This document shows positions 3,325-31,082 of a stretch of 32,000 nt of DNA, one piece after another (position 1 is the first letter of the stretch; each line of letters opens with the position of its first letter). Made by a program: the position numbers and the translations under genes. The DNA comes from Candidatus Saccharimonadota bacterium (GTDB taxonomy: Bacteria > Patescibacteriota > Saccharimonadia > Saccharimonadales > UBA4665). The DNA lies in the NCBI GenBank assembly GCA_016700375.1, contig CP065016.1, positions 120,001 to 152,000 on the forward strand, in the 5' to 3' direction. The notes under the pieces were generated by a model that was not told where the DNA came from, searched no databases, and saw only the letters and a program-made list of their open reading frames with translations.

Positions 3325-3703
3325 ATGAGCGAAGACGAATTCTCAAAACTATTTCGGTATGTTAGTGAACAATTTGAGACCGTCAATCGCAAGCTTGACG
3401 AGAAAGCATCGCAGCATAGTCTTGATTCACTCACAAATGCAATCGATAGTTTCATAAAACGTCTTGATAGCCATGACACAAATATGGCGGCGCGCGATAG
3501 TCAATTTGAGCGAACCTGAATCTCAAAACCCTTCCTGCTATACCGTGCTGTCATCCCAGCGCAGGCTGGGATCCAGAAATATATACTGGATTCCCGCCTT
3601 CGCGGGAATGACACTTTGGAGGTTTTGAGATTCAGTTGAGCGATTACTAGAATGGGCTCGCAAGGTTTCAGCAAAGACCGGTATCCCACTCGAAAATCTG
3701 TGA
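3325..3703 (+). pseudogene. Small coiled-coil protein gene (paralog of 19687 and 21630) interrupted by a palindromic insert
   Basis: The ORF 3325-3513 (..DSQFER) runs into the insert and stops at 3517-3519. Removing 3514-3643 joins it in frame to 3644-3703 (LLEWARKVSAKTGIPLENL*). That restored tail matches the C-termini of the paralogs (VDRLERWIQQVAQVTGVQLQY*, MEKWIFQIADKLDLKLNYE*). TATAAT (3312-3317) lies 7 nt before the ATG. Confidence 0.7.
3514..3635. mobile_element. MITE-like palindromic element (122 bp) with 8-bp target-site duplication
   Basis: It has perfect 15-bp terminal inverted repeats: CTGAATCTCAAAACC (3516-3530) and GGTTTTGAGATTCAG (3621-3635). The direct repeats TTGAGCGA at 3506-3513 and 3636-3643 flank it. 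The core carries two GC-rich hairpins (ATCCCAGC-gcag-GCTGGGAT and ATTCCCGC-cttc-GCGGGAAT) bounded by TGTCATCC..GGAATGACA. Confidence 0.65.
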
Positions 3704-7437: not shown

Positions 7438-7442
7438 TCGCT

Positions 7443-7595
7443 ATGCTCCAATTACCAATTACCAATTACCAATTACCAATGAATTATCAATTTTCAGTTA
7501 CCAATGAAGCTGCAAATGCCACATCGCTACAAGCTAATGTATTGAAAATTGAAAATTGTAAACTGCAAATTGCAGCGACTGAAAGGAGTGTCTAA
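7443..7595 (+). CDS. Spacer-spanning mini-ORF A (50 aa) in the rpoB-rpoC heptamer-repeat spacer
   Basis: The product is MLQLPITNYQLPMNYQFSVTNEAANATSLQANVLKIENCKLQIAATERSV*. This is the only stop-free frame of the spacer. The ATG lies 5 nt after the rpoB TAG, with the SD GGGGAGGAGG inside the rpoB 3' end. The stop TAA overlaps the rpoC ATG (TAATG, 7593-7597). Repeat units are (CCAATTA)x4 at 7448-7475 and an ATTGAAA-type array at 7541-7575. Confidence 0.5.
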   Translation: MLQLPITNYQLPMNYQFSVTNEAANATSLQANVLKIENCKLQIAATERSV

Positions 7596-11686: not shown

Positions 11687-13207
11687 CTACAGAGTAAGAA
11701 GGTCGATACTTCTAATAGATATACCCCGTCGAGATGCATGGTCTACCGCGATATATCCAATTGCATTGCGTAAATCAGGCAATGCATGCGAGTATGCTTC
11801 TTTCCTACTGCCCGCCGATTGTAAGCCGTGTTTTCGTGCGTAACGTTTCATCTGTGCTGGCAGCATGGCAAAGCTGTCGATTTGATCTCTTTCCTGGGCA
11901 AGGACCAGGTGCAGCAACTCTGTCGGTAAAATGAGTATCTGAGCAAGGACTTTATAGTCTTCACTTCTCATGTTGCGTAGATTAAGTAGACCTGACGAAT
12001 GAAGACTTATTGTTTTAGCACGGACGTTTTCAGGCGCAAGACCGAGTGCGGTAGGCATGATATTTACAATCCTGACGGGGTCTAACCCCAAAGCAGCCAT
12101 AAAAGCCATACGAGCCTTGAGACTCTCTGGACTAATACTAAGTATGGAGGGGCTAGAGTTGATAAGAGTAGCAGGTTCAAACCCTAAATCTCGGATTGTT
12201 TGAAACTTTAACTTAACATGTTCGGTCGAGTTGCCTAAGCTACGCGGATTTACAGTAAAAATTCGCCTAGCGTTTAACCCCAAGGCTGTTGCATTATCAA
12301 ATTTTGCTTGTATATTCTCAATCGACATGCCAAGCACTGAGGGAAGAAAATTGATTGTCTTGACAGGGTTAATCCCCAGTGAGATCAAGGCATTATACAT
12401 TTCACTGATAGCCCTAACAGACCTGCCAATGACAATAGGGTCTTTATGTATAAGTTTTAATGCATCAAATCCTAAATTAGTTAGATTCTCTACTTTATAC
12501 TTAACAGTGTCTACAGATAGGCAAATCGCAGTCGGATAGGTATTAATAATTGCTACAGCGTTGATGCCAAGTGCTGTCATGCTTTCAACCTTTGTTCTTA
12601 TGTTTTCGGTTGAATACCCTAGGGCTGTCGGCACTTTGGCGATAACCGTATGTGCATCTAGGCCTAGGGCTGAGATATTATCAAATTTTTTTTGTATCTC
12701 TTCCGGCGCTAAACCAAGTACAATGGGGTATTTATGTATAATTTCTCGTTCATCCATACCAAGGGAATGCAGATTTTCAATTTTTATTCTGATGTTTTTG
12801 CCTGAAAAGCCAAGCGCTGAAGGAAGGCCTTGAACGATACTCGTTACATCAAGCCCCGCAGCCGTCATCTCACGTAAAGCTTCTATAGTGGTGCCTGAGG
12901 GGAAAAGGGTCGGATAGCGGTCGAGTATCTTTATGTATGTGCTGTGCATGGGGTGGTCAGAGCAACTCCAGCCAAGACTCTCACCAAAAAAAATGCGGCG
13001 CGCTTCGACGGTCTTAGCGATGAGCGTTGGTTGGCTATGTGGATTCATAACGCACGATGCCTCTATGATTAAGGGGTTTAGAGCAGTGATCTCCTCTTCT
13101 ATAATAGCCCTATTTGCAAGCGCGCTAAACCAGACCGCATCATCTGGATGCAGCTGAACCGCAATGTCGTCACATTGCTCAACTAGTCTAACATTCAGCT
13201 CAGACAT
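11687..13207 (-). CDS. mTERF-like repeat protein (about 10 tandem 32-aa repeats)
   Basis: The 506-aa ORF has regular repeats, for example IIHKYPIVLGLAPEEIQKKFDNISALGLDAHT and VIAKVPTALGYSTENIRTKVESMTALGINAVA. Their consensus is I-x3-P-x2-L-x2-S-x-E-x-I-x2-K-x3-L-x2-LG-x5, which matches the mTERF motif as I recall it. TATAAT (13218-13223, minus strand) lies 10 nt before the ATG. The gene is convergent with rpoC. Confidence 0.6.
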   Translation of the reverse strand: MSELNVRLVEQCDDIAVQLHPDDAVWFSALANRAIIEEEITALNPLIIEASCVMNPHSQPTLIAKTVEARRIFFGESLGWSCSDHPMHSTYIKILDRYPTLFPSGTTIEALREMTAAGLDVTSIVQGLPSALGFSGKNIRIKIENLHSLGMDEREIIHKYPIVLGLAPEEIQKKFDNISALGLDAHTVIAKVPTALGYSTENIRTKVESMTALGINAVAIINTYPTAICLSVDTVKYKVENLTNLGFDALKLIHKDPIVIGRSVRAISEMYNALISLGINPVKTINFLPSVLGMSIENIQAKFDNATALGLNARRIFTVNPRSLGNSTEHVKLKFQTIRDLGFEPATLINSSPSILSISPESLKARMAFMAALGLDPVRIVNIMPTALGLAPENVRAKTISLHSSGLLNLRNMRSEDYKVLAQILILPTELLHLVLAQERDQIDSFAMLPAQMKRYARKHGLQSAGSRKEAYSHALPDLRNAIGYIAVDHASRRGISIRSIDLLTL

Positions 13208-16503: not shown

Positions 16504-16508
16504 TCGCT

Positions 16509-16658
16509 ATGCTCCAATTATCAATTAGCAATTTACAATTTTCAATGAATGATCAATTAGCAATTACCAATGAAAAGCAGAATCGCCAATCGCTAATCGC
16601 CATTCCATCGATAATCGATAATCGAAAATCGGTAATCACGACTGAAAGGAGCCTGTAG
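16509..16658 (+). CDS. Spacer-spanning mini-ORF B (49 aa) in the rpsL-rpsG heptamer-repeat spacer
   Basis: The product is MLQLSISNLQFSMNDQLAITNEKQNRQSLIAIPSIIDNRKSVITTERSL*. The first 20 nt after and including the upstream stop (TAGTCGCTATGCTCCAATTA) are identical to spacer A. The stop TAG overlaps the rpsG GTG (TAGTG, 16656-16660). Degenerate CAATTAN and AATCGNN 7-mers are present. Confidence 0.5.
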   Translation: MLQLSISNLQFSMNDQLAITNEKQNRQSLIAIPSIIDNRKSVITTERSL

Positions 16659-17137
16659 TGCCACGTAAAGTTACCGCCTCACTTGTTCGAGACATACCGG
16701 CTGACCGCATGTACGCTAGCGTACCGGTACAGCGACTCATAAACCGCGTTATGCGCGACGGCAAAAAGCAAGTTGCCGAACGCCTGGTGTACACCGGCAT
16801 GGAAACTGCTGCCAAGAAACTTACGGTAGATAACCCGCTCGAAGTTTTCGAGCAAGCCTTTGCTAATATCCGCCCCAATGTGGAGACTCGTTCTCGCCGC
16901 GTGGGTGGTGCCAACTACCAGATTCCGTTTGAAGTGAAAGGGCAGCGCCAAAACCACCTGACCACCATGTGGTTTGTACAAGCTGCCCGCGCTCGCAAAG
17001 GTATGAGCATGGCCGACCGTATTGCGGCCGAGCTTATGGATGCCTACAACAACCAAGGTGCCGCCGTAAAGAAGCGTGAAGATACGCACCGTATGGCCGA
17101 AGCTAACCGCGCATTCGCGCACTTCGCCCGCGGCTAA
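16658..17137 (+). CDS. rpsG: 30S ribosomal protein S7
   Basis: The sequence is MPRK..PVQRLINRVMRDGKK..VETRSRRVGGANYQIP.. The start is GTG, with the SD GAAAGGAG upstream. Confidence 0.95.
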   Translation: MPRKVTASLVRDIPADRMYASVPVQRLINRVMRDGKKQVAERLVYTGMETAAKKLTVDNPLEVFEQAFANIRPNVETRSRRVGGANYQIPFEVKGQRQNHLTTMWFVQAARARKGMSMADRIAAELMDAYNNQGAAVKKREDTHRMAEANRAFAHFARG

Positions 17138-17144
17138 ACAGCAA

Positions 17145-17175
17145 AAGAGATAAGGAGTAAGAGATAAGAGTTAAG
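17145..17175 (+). repeat. Left arm of heptamer-repeat stem flanking the four-helix-bundle gene
   Basis: The units are AAGAGAT AAGGAGT AAGAGAT AAGAGTT AAG. Bases 17146-17168 are complementary to 17547-17569 at 21 of 23 positions, by hand alignment. Confidence 0.6.
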
Positions 17176-17177
17176 AA

Positions 17178-17543
17178 ATGGCTGTCAATAATTTCAAAGA
17201 CTTAATTGCTTGGCAAAAATCTCATCTCCTGGTGCTAGAAATATATACAATAACAAGCACTTTTCCAAAGTCGGAGCAATTTGGCTTAACGAATCAACTT
17301 CGTAGAGCAGCGGTCTCGATTGTGTCAAATATTGCCGAAGGTTTTGGCCGTCGGACTGTAGCAGATAGAACGCACTTTTACGATATGGCACGAGCATCAT
17401 TGCATGAAGTTCAAGCTCAGCTTATGGTTGCGCGTGATGTTGGCTTCATGCAAGACACTGTACATGAGAAAATCGATACATTCAGCATAGAATGCCATAA
17501 AATATTGACAGGCTTAATTAATAAAACAAATGGTACGAAATAA
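17178..17543 (+). CDS. Four-helix-bundle protein (23S rRNA intervening-sequence protein family)
   Basis: It has the characteristic sequence FKDLIAWQKSHLLVLEIY..FPKSEQFGLTNQLRRAAVSIVSNIAEGFGR. The length is 121 aa. Confidence 0.85.
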   Translation: MAVNNFKDLIAWQKSHLLVLEIYTITSTFPKSEQFGLTNQLRRAAVSIVSNIAEGFGRRTVADRTHFYDMARASLHEVQAQLMVARDVGFMQDTVHEKIDTFSIECHKILTGLINKTNGTK

Positions 17544-17546
17544 GAT

Positions 17547-17569
17547 CTTATCTCTTACCTCTTAACTCT
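17547..17569 (+). repeat. Right arm of heptamer-repeat stem flanking the four-helix-bundle gene
   Basis: The sequence is CTTATCTCTTACCTCTTAACTCT (7-nt periodic CTCTTAN units), the reverse complement of the left arm. It runs directly into the fusA SD (TAAGGAG). Confidence 0.6.
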
Positions 17570-17580
17570 AAGGAGTTTAT

Positions 17581-19668
17581 ATGGCTGATAAAAAAGTTTT
17601 AATGAAAGACATCCGCAATATGGGCATTATTGCTCACATAGATGCGGGTAAAACTACTACGACCGAAGGTATTTTGTACCGCACTGGTCTCAAGCACAAA
17701 ATCGGTGCCGTTCATGAAGGTGAAACCACCACCGACTGGATGGCGCAAGAGCGCGAACGTGGCATTACCATTGTTTCCGCTGCGGTGACTTGTTTCTGGA
17801 AGGGCAAGCAAATCAACATTATCGATACGCCCGGTCACATCGACTTCACTGCCGAGGTGGAGCGTTCACTCCGCGTGCTCGACGGTGCGTGTGTGGTGTT
17901 CGACGGCAAAATGGGCGTGGAAAGCCAGAGTGAAACCGTGTGGCGCCAGGCCGACAAATATGGCGTACCGCGCATTTGCTTCATCAACAAAATCAACCAA
18001 ACCGGTGGCGACTTCTACAAGAGTCTCGATAGTATTCATCACCGCCTGAGTAAGCGTGCTTTTCCGGTACACCTGCCAATTGGGTTTGAGCAGAGCATTA
18101 ACGGTGTGGTCGACCTAGTGGCCATGAAGTCATATACCTACACCGAGTTTCATGACCACGAACTCACCGAGGGCGAAGTCCCAGCCGATATGCTCGACCA
18201 GGTAAAGAAATACCGCAGCCTGCTCATAGAAAACGCCGTGGCCGAAGACGAAGCCATGCTCGAAAAGTATTTCGAAGTGGGTGAAGACGGGCTAAGCGTT
18301 GAGGAAATCAAGCAAGCCATTCGTAGCGCCGTGTTAAGCGGTAAGTTCTACGCGGTGACCGGTGGTGATGGCCGCGGTGTTATTGTAGAAAAAGTGCTCG
18401 ACATGGTAAATGACTACCTGCCCGCACCAGACGACCGTAGCAATGCTTGGGGCGTTCACCCGAAGACGGGTGACGAAATCGAGCGCAAGCACGACACCAG
18501 CGAGCCGCTGGCTGGCCTCGCATTCAAAATTACGACCGATCCATTTGTGGGCAAGCTGGCGTACTTCCGTGTGTACTCGGGTACGTTGCAGGCTGGTTCG
18601 TATGTGCTAAATAGTTCAACCGGTGAAAAAGAGCGGGTTGGCCGTATTGTGCGTATGCAGGCAGACAAACGCGAAGACGTCACCGAAGTGGTAGCGGGTG
18701 ATATTGCCGCAATTGTTGGCCTGAAAGGCACAACCACTGGTAACACGTTGTGTGACCCAGCGCATCCCATCCAGCTCGAAAACATTACCTTCCCAGAACC
18801 GCCGGTGTCTATCGCTATCGAGCCAAAGACCAAGGCCGACCAAGAAAAAATGAGCCTAGCGCTCCAAAGACTGGCCGAAGAAGACCCAACCTTCCGTGTG
18901 CGGGTAGATGACGAAACGGGTCAGACCATCATCTCTGGTATGGGCGAGCTGCACCTCGAAATCTTGGTTGACCGCATGAAACGCGAGTTTAACGTCGAAG
19001 CAAACATCGGTCAACCTCAGGTTGCCTACCGTGAAACCATTCGTAAAGACGCGGTTGAAGCACAGGGCAAGTTTGTTCGCCAAAGTGGTGGCCGCGGTCA
19101 GTACGGTGACGTCTGGTTGCGTCTTAGCCAAAATGAACAAGGTGCCGGCTTTGAGTTCATCAACTCTATCAAGGGTGGTGTGGTTCCAAGCGAGTACATC
19201 CCCGCAGTCCGCAAGGGCATAGAAGAAGCCATGAGCAACGGCGTGATTGCCGGTTACCCAGTGGTAGACGTAAAAGTTGAGCTGTACGACGGCAGTTACC
19301 ACGAAGTTGACTCCAACGAAATGGCCTTTAGTATTGCCGGTTCCATGGGCTTCCAAGACGGCTTTAAAAAGGCCGGTCCGGTACTGCTCGAGCCTGTCAT
19401 GAAGGTTGTTGTCGTCACGCCCGAGGAATTCATGGGTGACGTCATAGGCGATCTAAACAGCAAGCGTGGTCGGATTGAGTCTATGGAAGACCTTTCGTCT
19501 GGGATTAAGGAAATAACAGCGTTCGTTCCACTTGGAGAGATGTTTGGCTATACCACAAACTTGCGTAGCATGAGCCAGGGCCGCGCTAGCAGTAGCATGG
19601 AACTCGACCATTACGCCGACGTTCCAAACAACGTCGCCGATGCTATCATCGCCAAGAACAGCAAATAG
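17581..19668 (+). CDS. fusA: Elongation factor G
   Basis: It has a GTPase G domain (AHIDAGKTTTTE, DTPGHIDF, NKID) and full-length EF-G homology. Confidence 0.97.
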   Translation: MADKKVLMKDIRNMGIIAHIDAGKTTTTEGILYRTGLKHKIGAVHEGETTTDWMAQERERGITIVSAAVTCFWKGKQINIIDTPGHIDFTAEVERSLRVLDGACVVFDGKMGVESQSETVWRQADKYGVPRICFINKINQTGGDFYKSLDSIHHRLSKRAFPVHLPIGFEQSINGVVDLVAMKSYTYTEFHDHELTEGEVPADMLDQVKKYRSLLIENAVAEDEAMLEKYFEVGEDGLSVEEIKQAIRSAVLSGKFYAVTGGDGRGVIVEKVLDMVNDYLPAPDDRSNAWGVHPKTGDEIERKHDTSEPLAGLAFKITTDPFVGKLAYFRVYSGTLQAGSYVLNSSTGEKERVGRIVRMQADKREDVTEVVAGDIAAIVGLKGTTTGNTLCDPAHPIQLENITFPEPPVSIAIEPKTKADQEKMSLALQRLAEEDPTFRVRVDDETGQTIISGMGELHLEILVDRMKREFNVEANIGQPQVAYRETIRKDAVEAQGKFVRQSGGRGQYGDVWLRLSQNEQGAGFEFINSIKGGVVPSEYIPAVRKGIEEAMSNGVIAGYPVVDVKVELYDGSYHEVDSNEMAFSIAGSMGFQDGFKKAGPVLLEPVMKVVVVTPEEFMGDVIGDLNSKRGRIESMEDLSSGIKEITAFVPLGEMFGYTTNLRSMSQGRASSSMELDHYADVPNNVADAIIAKNSK

Positions 19669-19686: not shown

Positions 19687-20103
19687 ATGAGTAAAAAACC
19701 GACTGATCTAGATGATGTGGTGAACGTTATCTCGGATTTGACCGAGTTGTTTTCGACGCGCTTCGATAAAATGGATCAGCGCTTCGACAAAATGGATGAA
19801 CGCTTCGACAAAATGGATCAGCGCTTCGACAAAATGGACGAGCGCTTCGACAAAATGGATGAACGCATCAACAGCATCGATATGCGCCTGTTTAGCGTTG
19901 AGCAGAAGCTACTGGAGCATGACGTACAATTCGCAAAAATCAATGAACGTATCGACCATCTCTACAGTGTGCTAGACAGTCACATGAAGCGGATTGAGGA
20001 TATCGTGGCTGACAATGTAGCCCGCGACGCGCAACAAGCGCGCATGGAAAAGTGGATTTTCCAAATTGCCGATAAACTTGACCTAAAACTGAATTACGAA
20101 TAG
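19687..20103 (+). CDS. Small coiled-coil protein with RFDKMD(Q/E) heptad repeats
   Basis: The 138-aa product has five perfect 7-aa repeats. Its C-terminus (ARMEKWIFQIADKLDLKLNYE) matches the paralogs at 3325 and 21630. Confidence 0.7.
   Translation: MSKKPTDLDDVVNVISDLTELFSTRFDKMDQRFDKMDERFDKMDQRFDKMDERFDKMDERINSIDMRLFSVEQKLLEHDVQFAKINERIDHLYSVLDSHMKRIEDIVADNVARDAQQARMEKWIFQIADKLDLKLNYE
19759..19863 (+). repeat. 21-bp tandem repeat x5 (coding)
   Basis: The unit is CGCTTCGA(T/C)AAAATGGA(T/C)(CAG/GAA/GAG), repeated head to tail. A sixth degenerate unit follows at 19864-19884. Confidence 0.9.
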
Positions 20104-26901: not shown

Positions 26902-27041
26902 AAATGAATAGATTACCCATTACCCTGTCACCTGTCACCTTGGATTATCCTGTAGCCTGTCACCATGGTTATACGTCACAGGTTACACCTACGTCACACG
27001 TCACACGTGACACGCTAATCAGCGATGAAAGGAGCTTCTAA
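26898..27041 (+). CDS. Spacer-spanning mini-ORF C (47 aa) in the rplC-rplD spacer
   Basis: The product is [47 protein letters not shown]. The start overlaps the rplC stop (ATGA, 26898-26901) and the stop overlaps the rplD ATG (TAATG, 27039-27043). The 7-mers are ATTACCCx2, TGTCACCx2, GTCACACx2 and GTGACAC. Confidence 0.5.
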   Translation: MKMNRLPITLSPVTLDYPVACHHGYTSQVTPTSHVTRDTLISDERSF

Positions 27042-27700: not shown

Positions 27701-28113
27701 TGCACGTTTTAAAACCACGTTTGAGTGAAAAGGCATTTGGTCTTAGCCAGACAACGAACACGTTTGCTATTGATGTTCCAAGCGAGCTCAACAAGTACGA
27801 AGTTGCCGCTGTTGTTAAGAAGCAATTTGATGTAGAGATTAAGTCTGTTCGACTGGTGAACCGCAAGGGTAAAGTCAAGCGTGTTATGAACACGACTGGC
27901 AAGCGTAGTAGTAACCGAAAGGGTGTTCAGGGCGATGTAAAGAAGGCGTATGTCACGCTCAAAGCGGGCAGTCACCTGCCATTCTTTGCCGCTGCCGAAG
28001 AAGAAATTGCGAAGGCTGCAGCCGATAAAGCCAAAGCCGCTAAAAAAGACGCTGCTCCTGCTAAGAAAGCCGGCGGCCTTAAGAAGCTTGTCGGCAAGAA
28101 GGAGGCAAAGTAA
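27700..28113 (+). CDS. rplW: 50S ribosomal protein L23 (with Lys/Ala-rich C-terminal tail)
   Basis: It has an L23 core (KPRLSEKA..NKYEVAAVVKKQFDVEIKSVRLVN). The start overlaps the rplD stop (TAATG). Confidence 0.93.
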   Translation: MHVLKPRLSEKAFGLSQTTNTFAIDVPSELNKYEVAAVVKKQFDVEIKSVRLVNRKGKVKRVMNTTGKRSSNRKGVQGDVKKAYVTLKAGSHLPFFAAAEEEIAKAAADKAKAAKKDAAPAKKAGGLKKLVGKKEAK

Positions 28114-28114
28114 T

Positions 28115-28228
28115 ATGAATCATGAATCACGAATCATGAATCTAGCATGGGAAGTTATCGGCCGCAAGGCGGCAGGCATGATTCATACTACATACTTCAT
28201 GCTTCCGCGACTGAAAGGAGCTGCATAA
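28115..28228 (+). CDS. Spacer-spanning mini-ORF D (37 aa) in the rplW-rplB spacer
   Basis: The product is MNHESRIMNLAWEVIGRKAAGMIHTTYFMLPRLKGAA*. The ATG lies 1 nt after the rplW TAA, with AAGGAGG in the rplW 3' end. The stop overlaps the rplB ATG (TAATG, 28226-28230). It is a paralog of mini-ORF E. Confidence 0.55.
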   Translation: MNHESRIMNLAWEVIGRKAAGMIHTTYFMLPRLKGAA

Positions 28229-29406: not shown

Positions 29407-29679
29407 ATGAGTCGTTCATTAAAGAAGGGGCCGTTTATCGATCCGAAGCTCGCGAAAAAAGTCGTGGCGCTTGGCCCAGAGGATCGCACCATTATCAAAA
29501 CATGGGCCCGTGCTAGCACAATTGCCCCAGAGTTTGTTGGTAAAACATTTGCCGTACACAATGGCAAAGTCCACGTACCGGTTTTTGTTACCGAAAATAT
29601 GGTTGGCCACAAGCTCGGTGAATTTAGCCCAACGAGAAAGTTTAGGTCTCATGGCGGAAAGCTAGCCAAAGGTAAATAG
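29407..29679 (+). CDS. rpsS: 30S ribosomal protein S19
   Basis: The sequence is [39 protein letters not shown]. Confidence 0.96.
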
Positions 29680-29680
29680 G

Positions 29681-29797
29681 ATGAATAAAGAATCAAGAAT
29701 CATGAATCATGTTAAGGAAATTATCAGCAGCGAAGCTGCTGGCATGATTCATACTTCATACTTCATGATTCAGAAGCCGGAGGATATATGTCTGTAA
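29681..29797 (+). CDS. Spacer-spanning mini-ORF E (38 aa) in the rpsS-rplV spacer
   Basis: The product is MNKESRIMNHVKEIISSEAAGMIHTSYFMIQKPEDICL*. The ATG lies 1 nt after the rpsS TAG. The stop at 29795-29797 lies 7 nt past the rplV ATG at 29788. Confidence 0.5.
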   Translation: MNKESRIMNHVKEIISSEAAGMIHTSYFMIQKPEDICL

Positions 29798-30934: not shown

Positions 30935-30935
30935 A

Positions 30936-31082
30936 ATGATTTCATCATTTCAATTATCCTTTGGCCTGTCACCTGTCACATTGGATTATCCTGTCGCAAT
31001 TACCAATTGTTACATGTCACATGTCACGCCAATGTCACAGGTTACAGGTGACATGTTAATCGCGACTGAAAGGAGCTTTTAA
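30936..31082 (+). CDS. Spacer-spanning mini-ORF G (48 aa) in the rpsC-rplP spacer
   Basis: The product is [48 protein letters not shown]. The ATG lies 1 nt after the rpsC TAA, and the stop overlaps the rplP ATG (TAATG, 31080-31084). It is a paralog of mini-ORF C. Arms 30965-30984 and 31029-31048 are complementary at 18 of 20 positions. Confidence 0.55.

Follow-up and report, generated by a model that had tools for sequence, protein, structure and literature searches.

The question raised by this locus is why a gene of a family discovered in the intervening sequences (IVSs) of 23S rRNA should lie in a ribosomal-protein operon, between rpsG and fusA, with arrays of heptamers on either side of it that are complementary to each other. 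The locus belongs to a 32,000-nt stretch of Candidatus Saccharimonadota DNA (contig CP065016.1), the whole of which we call the window and whose numbering is used throughout; loci with an L-number (L008, L011 and so on) are related loci collected for comparison. Based on the letters of the window, an original prediction had placed here a 121-aa four-helix-bundle protein gene of 23S-IVS type in the loop of a heptamer-repeat stem. The cassette, i.e., the gene and its two arms, is real and conserved, and it is more general than was then proposed. It is best filed as an IVS-type element of stem plus open reading frame (ORF) that is resident in the operon spacers of mRNA, with heptamer-periodic arms as a family-wide trait.

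To the left of the gene (17178-17543, on the plus strand like both arms), the spacer at 17138-17177 (40 nt) is given by AAGAGAT AAGGAGT AAGAGAT AAGAGTT AAGAA, and the left (5') arm at 17145-17176, which has period 7 in Tandem Repeats Finder (TRF), is the run of about 4.6 tandem heptamers AAGAGAT AAGGAGT AAGAGAT AAGAGTT AAGA. To the right, the spacer at 17544-17580 (37 nt) reads (GAT)CTTATCT CTTACCT CTTAACT CT, then AAGGAG, then the fusA ATG at 17581, and the right (3') arm fills 17546-17569 (TRF period 7, 3.4 units, phased by that program as TCTTATC TCTTACC TCTTAAC TCT). The left arm is purine-rich and has no C; the right arm is pyrimidine-rich. An inverted-repeat search paired 17146-17169 with 17546-17569 (24 nt, 88% complementary), and reading 17146-17168 against 17547-17569 by eye gave 20 Watson-Crick pairs and one G·U out of 23, so that the 21 of 23 first claimed for the arms holds if the G·U is counted and does not hold as a Watson-Crick figure. 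RNAduplex joined the arms in 22 bp at -27.9 kcal/mol, where shuffles averaged -12.1 (z = -5.8), the observed inverted-repeat score was reached by 0 of 5000 shuffles of the two spacers, and the long-range stem, with the gene in its loop, was present in both the minimum-free-energy and the centroid folds of 17130-17590 (461 nt). None of the 15 other heptamer arrays of the window paired with the cassette arms. The stem in the window is real and non-random.

Its placement is tight on every side. The paired part of the left arm lies 8 nt past the stop codon of rpsG, the upstream operon gene (ribosomal protein S7; 16658-17137, plus strand; PF00177, E 9.5e-54), the heptamers of that arm stop 1 nt short of the four-helix-bundle ATG and contain the sole Shine-Dalgarno-like stretches upstream of it, and the right arm starts 2 nt past the stop codon of the same gene. 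Next to the right arm on its 3' side, and beyond the stem, is what reads as the Shine-Dalgarno sequence of fusA (AAGGAG, 17570-17575, plus strand), which, as CTCTAAGGAGTTTATATGGC, is kept even between differing cassette alleles, and then fusA itself (elongation factor G, EF-G; 17581-19668, plus strand; Pfam EF-G domains). A consensus scan, weak evidence as such scans are, found no plus-strand promoter-like or terminator-like sites between rpsG and fusA, and Rfam, applied to the full window with gathering thresholds, gave 0 matches. The insertion point is a protein-gene spacer of the str operon, rpsG-fusA, and not helix 25 or helix 45 of a 23S rRNA gene. The closest homologues of the four-helix-bundle protein, together with a 100%-identical S7, carry the source names Candidatus Saccharibacteria and Saccharimonadales.

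Thirteen cassettes in rpsG-fusA spacers of related Saccharimonadales made it possible to ask what evolution keeps. The original prediction had named a finding that would count against it, the gene in this position lacking complementary flanks. This was looked for, and complementary flanks were present in 13 of 13 relatives; the stem is kept in every cassette, at 22-42 bp, with dG from -28 to -60 kcal/mol and z from -4.4 to -10.6. The arms come in three types, with AAGAGAT/AGAGTTA-like units, with GAGTCAT/ATGAGAC-like units, and an 8-mer type, CAAGGAGT. From the first type to the second, the second base of the left-arm unit is changed in every unit (AAGAG to ATGAG), and the matching base of the right arm is altered in every unit too (CTCTT to CTCAT), a compensatory change. 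In an alignment of the outer 24 bp, anchored by hand at the conserved stem base and holding nine distinct sequences, 92% of the cells were paired, versus 31-58% once the partner column was slid; 7 of its 24 pairs had two-sided changes, and its covariation score was reached by 0 of 500 shuffles. The arms of the window and L170 are identical despite an ORF dS of 0.71, and the arms are therefore constrained as well, so that purifying selection acts on them and on the protein alike.

The arms and the gene evolve and swap as one unit. At the four-fold sites of rpsG, L011 and L089 are 0.81 identical to the window, versus 0.83 for L008; the cassette protein of L008 is 98% identical to that of the window, and that of L011 and L089 is 65% identical, with four-fold sites that are saturated (0.34). 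Similarity between these two and the window is lost just past the rpsG stop and regained at ...ACTCTAAGGAGTTTATATG. Copy number also shifts within the arms, the right arm of L008 and of L170 having one extra unit. Contigs with an identical S7 protein hold a type A cassette, a type B cassette, or an unrelated 73-aa ORF without heptamer arms, and the spacer of other relatives has a conserved 175-180-aa cysteine-rich ORF, again without arms; no Pfam matches are on record for the 73-aa and 175-180-aa ORFs. In some relatives the site is empty (a 5-nt spacer, TAA-TCGGT-ATG), and at L180 2981-3144 there is a decayed type-A cassette, which has lost its left arm and keeps only the last ~150 nt (the 3' third of its ORF), with a right arm that is degenerate. 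No target-site duplication was visible when empty, filled and remnant sites were compared. Taken by the marks of a MITE (a small transposable element with inverted repeats) or transposon, the cassette has one copy in the window and inverted arms, with no visible target duplication. The rpsG-fusA site is a hotspot for small cargo, and at this site heptamer arms occur only with the four-helix-bundle gene. Alternative cargo lies at L168 2981-3358, L172 2987-3529, L173 1684-2211 and L175 2987-3520. The earlier suggestion that the gene rides on the arms was supported: the two are replaced together among close relatives, other cargo is armless, and inverted arms recur in many phyla and operons.

How far the arrangement extends was seen in 160 further loci with relatives of the window protein (37-98% identity), drawn from GTDB genomes and JGI metagenomes and spread over Patescibacteria, Bdellovibrionales, Gammaproteobacteria, Acidobacteriota, Bacteroidota, Chloroflexota, Verrucomicrobiota, Planctomycetota, Gemmatimonadota and others. 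The flanks had an inverted-repeat score of at least 12 in 102 of the 152 evaluable family genes (67%), compared with 9 of the 460 other genes of those loci (2%). Where the arm period was clear it was 7 in 85 loci, 8 in 7 and 6 in 4, and among 130 non-redundant loci the flanks were complementary, i.e., inverted, in 90 and direct arrays on both sides in 2. The median arm is 30 nt long, the median left arm starts 2 nt past the upstream stop and the median right arm ends 11 nt ahead of the downstream start, and the sequence of the unit varies by lineage (GTATCAG, GGCATTC, AGTTTGA, GTCCAAA, CGTTTAAC, etc.). The 5' arm has more G than C in 79 loci and less in 10 (p = 2e-14), and the polarity of the cassette is therefore fixed relative to transcription. 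Family genes almost always share the direction of both neighbours, from which they are separated by 20-100 nt, and the neighbours form unrelated housekeeping pairs: S7/EF-G, coproporphyrinogen oxidase/ALAD (hemF-hemB), MetH/MTHFR (metH-metF), HlyD/AcrB, T2SS-F/pseudopilin and SufBD. Surveying the genomic contexts of the family, a check suggested at the outset, brought out the inverted arms and no setting in rRNA: a search for universal 16S/23S motifs placed 0 of the 160 related loci in an rRNA gene (no credible matches).

The inverted-arm rule is a strong tendency and not invariant. Cyanobacterial plasmid copies are mixed, one having a downstream array only, one no arrays and one direct arrays. 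The latter kind was seen in L179 (Pseudanabaena galeata plasmid NZ_CP112875.1), where 1370-1990 holds direct arrays of AAAAGCT x14 upstream and AAAAGCC x10 downstream of the four-helix-bundle gene. In a metagenome-assembled genome of Flavobacteriaceae (L073, 3940-5180) three near-identical tandem cassettes with a 398-nt period lie between hemF-like and hemB-like genes, and at each junction a right arm is joined to a left arm, either through true tandem amplification or as an assembly artefact. Two different four-helix-bundle genes 1-3 kb apart occur in L107, L121-L125, L028, L041 and L084.

To our knowledge, no function has been assigned to PF05635 members outside diversity-generating retroelements since the family was discovered in 23S rRNA IVSs. 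The assignment of the 121-aa protein to this family of four-helix bundles, as first proposed, is secure: it matches PF05635 at E 3.7e-35 (120.8 bits, cut-off 33.8) over profile positions 1-106 of 106, and TIGR02436 at E 4.6e-34 (116.9 bits, cut-off 24). Its nearest solved structure is Xanthomonas XCC0516 (PDB 2GSC, E 4.3e-20), and the stretch ...QLRRAAVSIVSNIAEGFGR... fits R-x3-S-x3-N-x2-E, i.e., the RxxxSxxxNxxE motif conserved in XCC0516 homologues (PMC3936711). Among orthologues, dN/dS is 0.04-0.17, which denotes purifying selection on the protein, and 22,317 clusters at 50% identity match it at E <= 1e-3. The Avd/bAvd proteins of diversity-generating retroelements belong to the same four-helix-bundle superfamily, and identity with them was rejected, as PF22296 (bAvd-like) gave E 6.6e-07 and 30.2 bits, below its cut-off of 40, NF033474 gave 25.3 bits against a cut-off of 80, and there was no reverse transcriptase among the window ORFs scanned. 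The protein matched 0 PADLOC families of anti-phage defence at E <= 0.01, and a scan of IMG/VR gave no viral relatives.

Heptamers are not confined to the cassette. That the other spacers are also 7-nt periodic, as had been noted, was confirmed by TRF, with 15 period-7 arrays in the window versus 0-1 for each other period from 5 to 11; their units are unlike those of the cassette arms. The small ORFs in these spacers are translations of the repeat arrays themselves, and the earlier remark that the cassette gene stands in the place of a mini-ORF is not meaningful. In the loci that carry this gene family, arrays elsewhere numbered 73 with period 7 and 37 with period 8, with fewer for others. The ORF-less heptamer spacers of the window form paralogous pairs in different operon spacers, 7438-7594 with 16504-16657 (120 of 157 positions identical), 26902-27040 with 30935-31081 (112 of 139) and 28105-28222 with 29675-29787 (88 of 113), and have common ends such as TCGCTATGCTCCAATTA... 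and ...GCGACTGAAAGGAG. In the 3' array of the first pair the same base differs in every unit (ATTGAAA vs ATCGATA), and the second copy, 16504-16657, folds no better than shuffles. This copy is the rpsL-rpsG spacer, which varies among relatives as much as the rpsG-fusA spacer does: it is absent in L002, L004, L088 and L172, some relatives having overlapping genes (TAATG), it is an ORF-less heptamer hairpin with differing units in L010, L011, L012 and L170, and it holds unrelated small ORFs in L008, L009, L168, L169 and L175. At 28147-28215, the mechanical ORF start at 28147 falls inside a heptamer hairpin whose loop holds a GC mini-hairpin, and ~28205-28220 holds GCGACTGAA(AGGAG), a motif also seen ahead of other ribosomal protein genes, so that the true gene start is probably downstream of 28147.

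What, then, would such a cassette do in an operon? The reading that we favour, with moderate confidence, is that of an IVS-type hairpin whose stem loops the insert out of the operon mRNA and is processed by RNase III. The cassette would be transcribed as part of the operon and, once the 3' arm had been made, the arms would pair into a helix of 22-35 bp that closes just outside the ORF. This helix would loop the ~370-nt insert out of the mRNA and bring the rpsG stop to within ~20 nt of the fusA ribosome-binding site, near the insert-free arrangement with its 5-nt spacer, and it would also bury the ribosome-binding region of the cassette gene itself, the four-helix-bundle protein then being made mainly before the 3' arm is transcribed. 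By analogy with the 23S IVSs, whose design it shares, the helix probably serves as an RNase III substrate, and the cassette RNA would be cut from the operon mRNA. The heptamer arrays would homogenise internally, with arm-to-arm complementarity restored afterwards. That the arms pair in vivo, that RNase III cleaves the stem and that translation is affected we infer from this geometry, which suggests an insert made so that an operon can tolerate it. Since a helix of 22-35 bp is the kind that RNase III cuts in IVSs of the same design and in Correia hairpins, processing of the operon mRNA at the stem appears, by that analogy, its most likely fate.

Several observations sit badly with this hairpin reading. 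Arms could not be detected in about 30% of family members, and a few have direct instead of inverted arrays, e.g., the Pseudanabaena arrangement of cas6, four-helix-bundle gene and cas4; the stem of the window itself is, by RNAduplex, the weakest among the 13 orthologous cassettes. RNase III needs no 7-nt periodicity, and the heptamer design is left unexplained by the model. Arrays can change one base across all units even with pairing lost, as in 7438-7594 and 16504-16657, and array homogenisation therefore looks like a mutational process; of the array changes, it is only the matched change in both cassette arms that indicates selection. Pairing and cleavage in vivo are, moreover, inferred from the letters of the DNA. 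Selection for an RNA helix usually favours G·U. Among the transition-type mismatches of the arms, read on the sense strand, there are 103 G·U and 95 A·C, i.e., no G·U excess, and the complementarity could therefore be kept at the level of DNA. This last point opens onto an explanation that is unlikely in our estimation and is nonetheless live: the arms may mark the ends of an element that moves or recombines, either as terminal inverted repeats or as a substrate for cruciform or fold-back structures, with the RNA stem a by-product, and their complementarity may come from strand-symmetric template switching, or from quasi-palindrome correction and slippage, instead of RNA-helix selection. Consistent with it are the exchange of whole cassettes between near-identical backgrounds, the empty site, the differing arm copy number of cassettes that are 98% identical, the spread of base changes through all units of an array, including the ORF-less one without pairing (ATTGAAA to ATCGATA), the paralogous pairs of ORF-less spacers, and the three cassettes of L073 joined arm to arm. 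However, no transposase or recombinase accompanies the cassette, empty and filled sites differ by no target-site duplication, and homologous recombination in the conserved rpsG and fusA flanks would account for the allele swaps without any mobility encoded by the element. The fixed polarity of the arms relative to ORF and transcription (79 versus 10 loci) also tells against termini of this sort, as does the nucleotide-exact placement of the arms at the stop and start codons of the neighbours, which is not required of a pure DNA element.

The unexplained heptamers are where a further account, to which we give a similarly low likelihood, has its strength: the arrays may be binding sites of the encoded four-helix-bundle protein, with the stem secondary, and binding may serve to autoregulate the protein's own cassette or to work in trans, on the genome's numerous heptamer hairpins that lack an ORF. 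bAvd and XCC0516, relatives of the window protein, form pentamers. Recognition by a protein would account for the 7-nt periodicity, unlike the RNase III model; it fits the arrays that at rpsG-fusA accompany the gene and no other cargo, the direct arrays that flank the gene in Pseudanabaena, the strong purifying selection on the protein, and the dominance of period 7 both in the window (15 vs 0-1) and, as the commonest period, in family-carrying loci (73 vs 37 for period 8). Taxa with independently described heptamer repeats, i.e., Nostoc/Calothrix, Xanthomonas, Flavobacteria and Coxiella, carry the family. Such binding is a hypothetical drawn from sequence, however, and since the units are wholly different between lineages and spacers the protein would have to read the periodicity or co-evolve with each array; the excess of inverted over direct flanks, 90 to 2, points instead to pairing as the selected property. 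Both of these accounts are live rivals, and neither excludes the hairpin reading. The same cannot be said of the idea that the arms are neutral simple-sequence repeats of an AT-rich spacer, present by chance and unrelated to the gene, which we regard as having next to no likelihood. Heptamer arrays are common in the window's spacers anyway, which would be in its favour, but 0 of 5000 shuffles reached the observed score, the other 15 arrays never pair with the cassette arms, the stem persists, with compensatory changes, at all 13 orthologous sites, and complementary arms occur in 67% of family loci versus 2% of control genes; the comparative data refute it.

Other features of the window were recorded alongside. 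The 138-aa ORF at 19687-20103, between fusA and tuf, encodes a coiled coil and contains a tandem repeat of 21 nt (7 aa, DERFDKM-like); it has no heptamer arms and gives only weak matches of coiled-coil type in Pfam, NCBIfam and PADLOC; the fusA-tuf spacer of relatives holds other cargo, e.g., a GIY-YIG ORF in L004. In the long spacer upstream of rpoB there is a perfect 15-nt inverted repeat, CTGAATCTCAAAACC at 3516-3530 and GGTTTTGAGATTCAG at 3621-3635, 90 nt apart, which appears to break a small coiled-coil-like reading frame and resembles a small inserted element. On the minus strand, 11687-13207 encodes a 506-aa protein with an mTERF domain (PF02536, E 2e-25). The mTERF family is named for mitochondrial transcription termination factors.

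The locus and the survey tie the PF05635 family to heptamer tandem repeats that have long been noted, and left unexplained, in several bacterial groups. Arrays of GGGAATC in Xanthomonas, with 70-75 convergent pairs (PMC4692102), and of TAACTGA in Beggiatoaceae (PMC4679880) were described in papers that do not mention this gene family. Like these and like the short tandemly repeated repetitive (STRR) sequences, the cassette arms are tandem 7-nt units in the spacers of mostly co-directional genes, with a length that varies among close relatives, and convergent pairs of GGGAATC-type arrays can form stem-loops, as the arms are predicted to. Unlike the STRR, GGGAATC and TAACTGA reports, which have one dominant unit per genome and no link to PF05635, the units of the window vary by spacer, and the cassette arrays, in contrast to intergenic heptamer arrays, are a matched inverted pair around a gene. 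It is conceivable, though we think it improbable, that PF05635 genes with inverted heptamer arms are the gene-carrying form of very widespread and unrecognised hairpin elements in rRNA genes and in the spacers of operons with high transcription, that ORF-less heptamer hairpins and, more broadly, the excess of heptamer tandem repeats in bacterial genomes (STRR, GGGAATC and TAACTGA arrays) are their non-coding relatives, and that the protein maintains, processes or spreads the elements by acting on nucleic acid phased in heptamers.

Correia elements offer a parallel for the hairpin itself: co-transcribed with operons, their hairpins are bound by RNase III and cleaved or protected, so that the expression of neighbouring genes changes (PMC2649163). 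The cassette resembles Correia elements and similar MITEs in being an insertion bounded by inverted repeats in an operon spacer, and it differs from the Correia elements, which are non-coding, have one conserved sequence and show target duplication, in having a gene, lineage-specific heptamer arms and no duplication that could be seen. Genes of the 23S_rRNA_IVP type are known inside cas operons, e.g., between cmr3 and cmr2, and were interpreted as an association with CRISPR-Cas (PMC3936711). The window gene is wedged between co-directional operon genes in just the same way, as is the cas6/cas4 case of the Pseudanabaena plasmid, and since such wedging is found in many unrelated operons the association is more likely with operon spacers in general than with CRISPR-Cas, a simpler explanation of what was reported. 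In the open-access literature we found no published statement of the general cassette rule, i.e., that the PF05635 family is typically a cassette with matched, mostly 7-nt-periodic inverted arms between co-transcribed genes, and an earlier description elsewhere is possible. The rule makes an experimental handle tractable, through arm mutations, RNase III assays and protein-RNA binding.

The 23S rRNA IVSs of Leptospira also carry an S23p/PF05635 ORF, and the IVSs are among the known elements nearest to the cassette in design. In Coxiella burnetii RNase III cuts the 28-bp terminal stem of the IVS at mid-stem in vitro, three tandem heptamers (GACAGAT) of strain-variable copy number lie just before the S23p start codon, and the ORF is reported to be decaying and not translated; the heptamer-stem design was not generalised there (PMC4990558). 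Insertions in the rRNA genes of the Candidate Phyla Radiation sometimes encode this family, and the rRNA genes of Saccharibacteria have almost only short, ORF-less insertions, with no introns or homing-endonuclease genes (PMC11270868). The cassette is unlike the IVSs in its host, an mRNA operon spacer and not helix 45 of 23S rRNA, in its ORF, which in the window is under purifying selection unlike that of Coxiella, and in that 0 of the 160 closest relatives of its gene lie in an rRNA gene; cuts by RNase III are described for Coxiella in vitro, and at the cassette stem they are a prediction from sequence. The likenesses are that a long terminal stem, of ~25-30 bp, encloses a PF05635 gene in its loop, and that, as in Coxiella, tandem heptamers stand directly upstream of the start of the ORF. 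The architectural link to 23S IVSs that the original prediction had drawn is well supported by this shared design, and IVS elements now appear to be one instance of an operon-spacer element of general occurrence.

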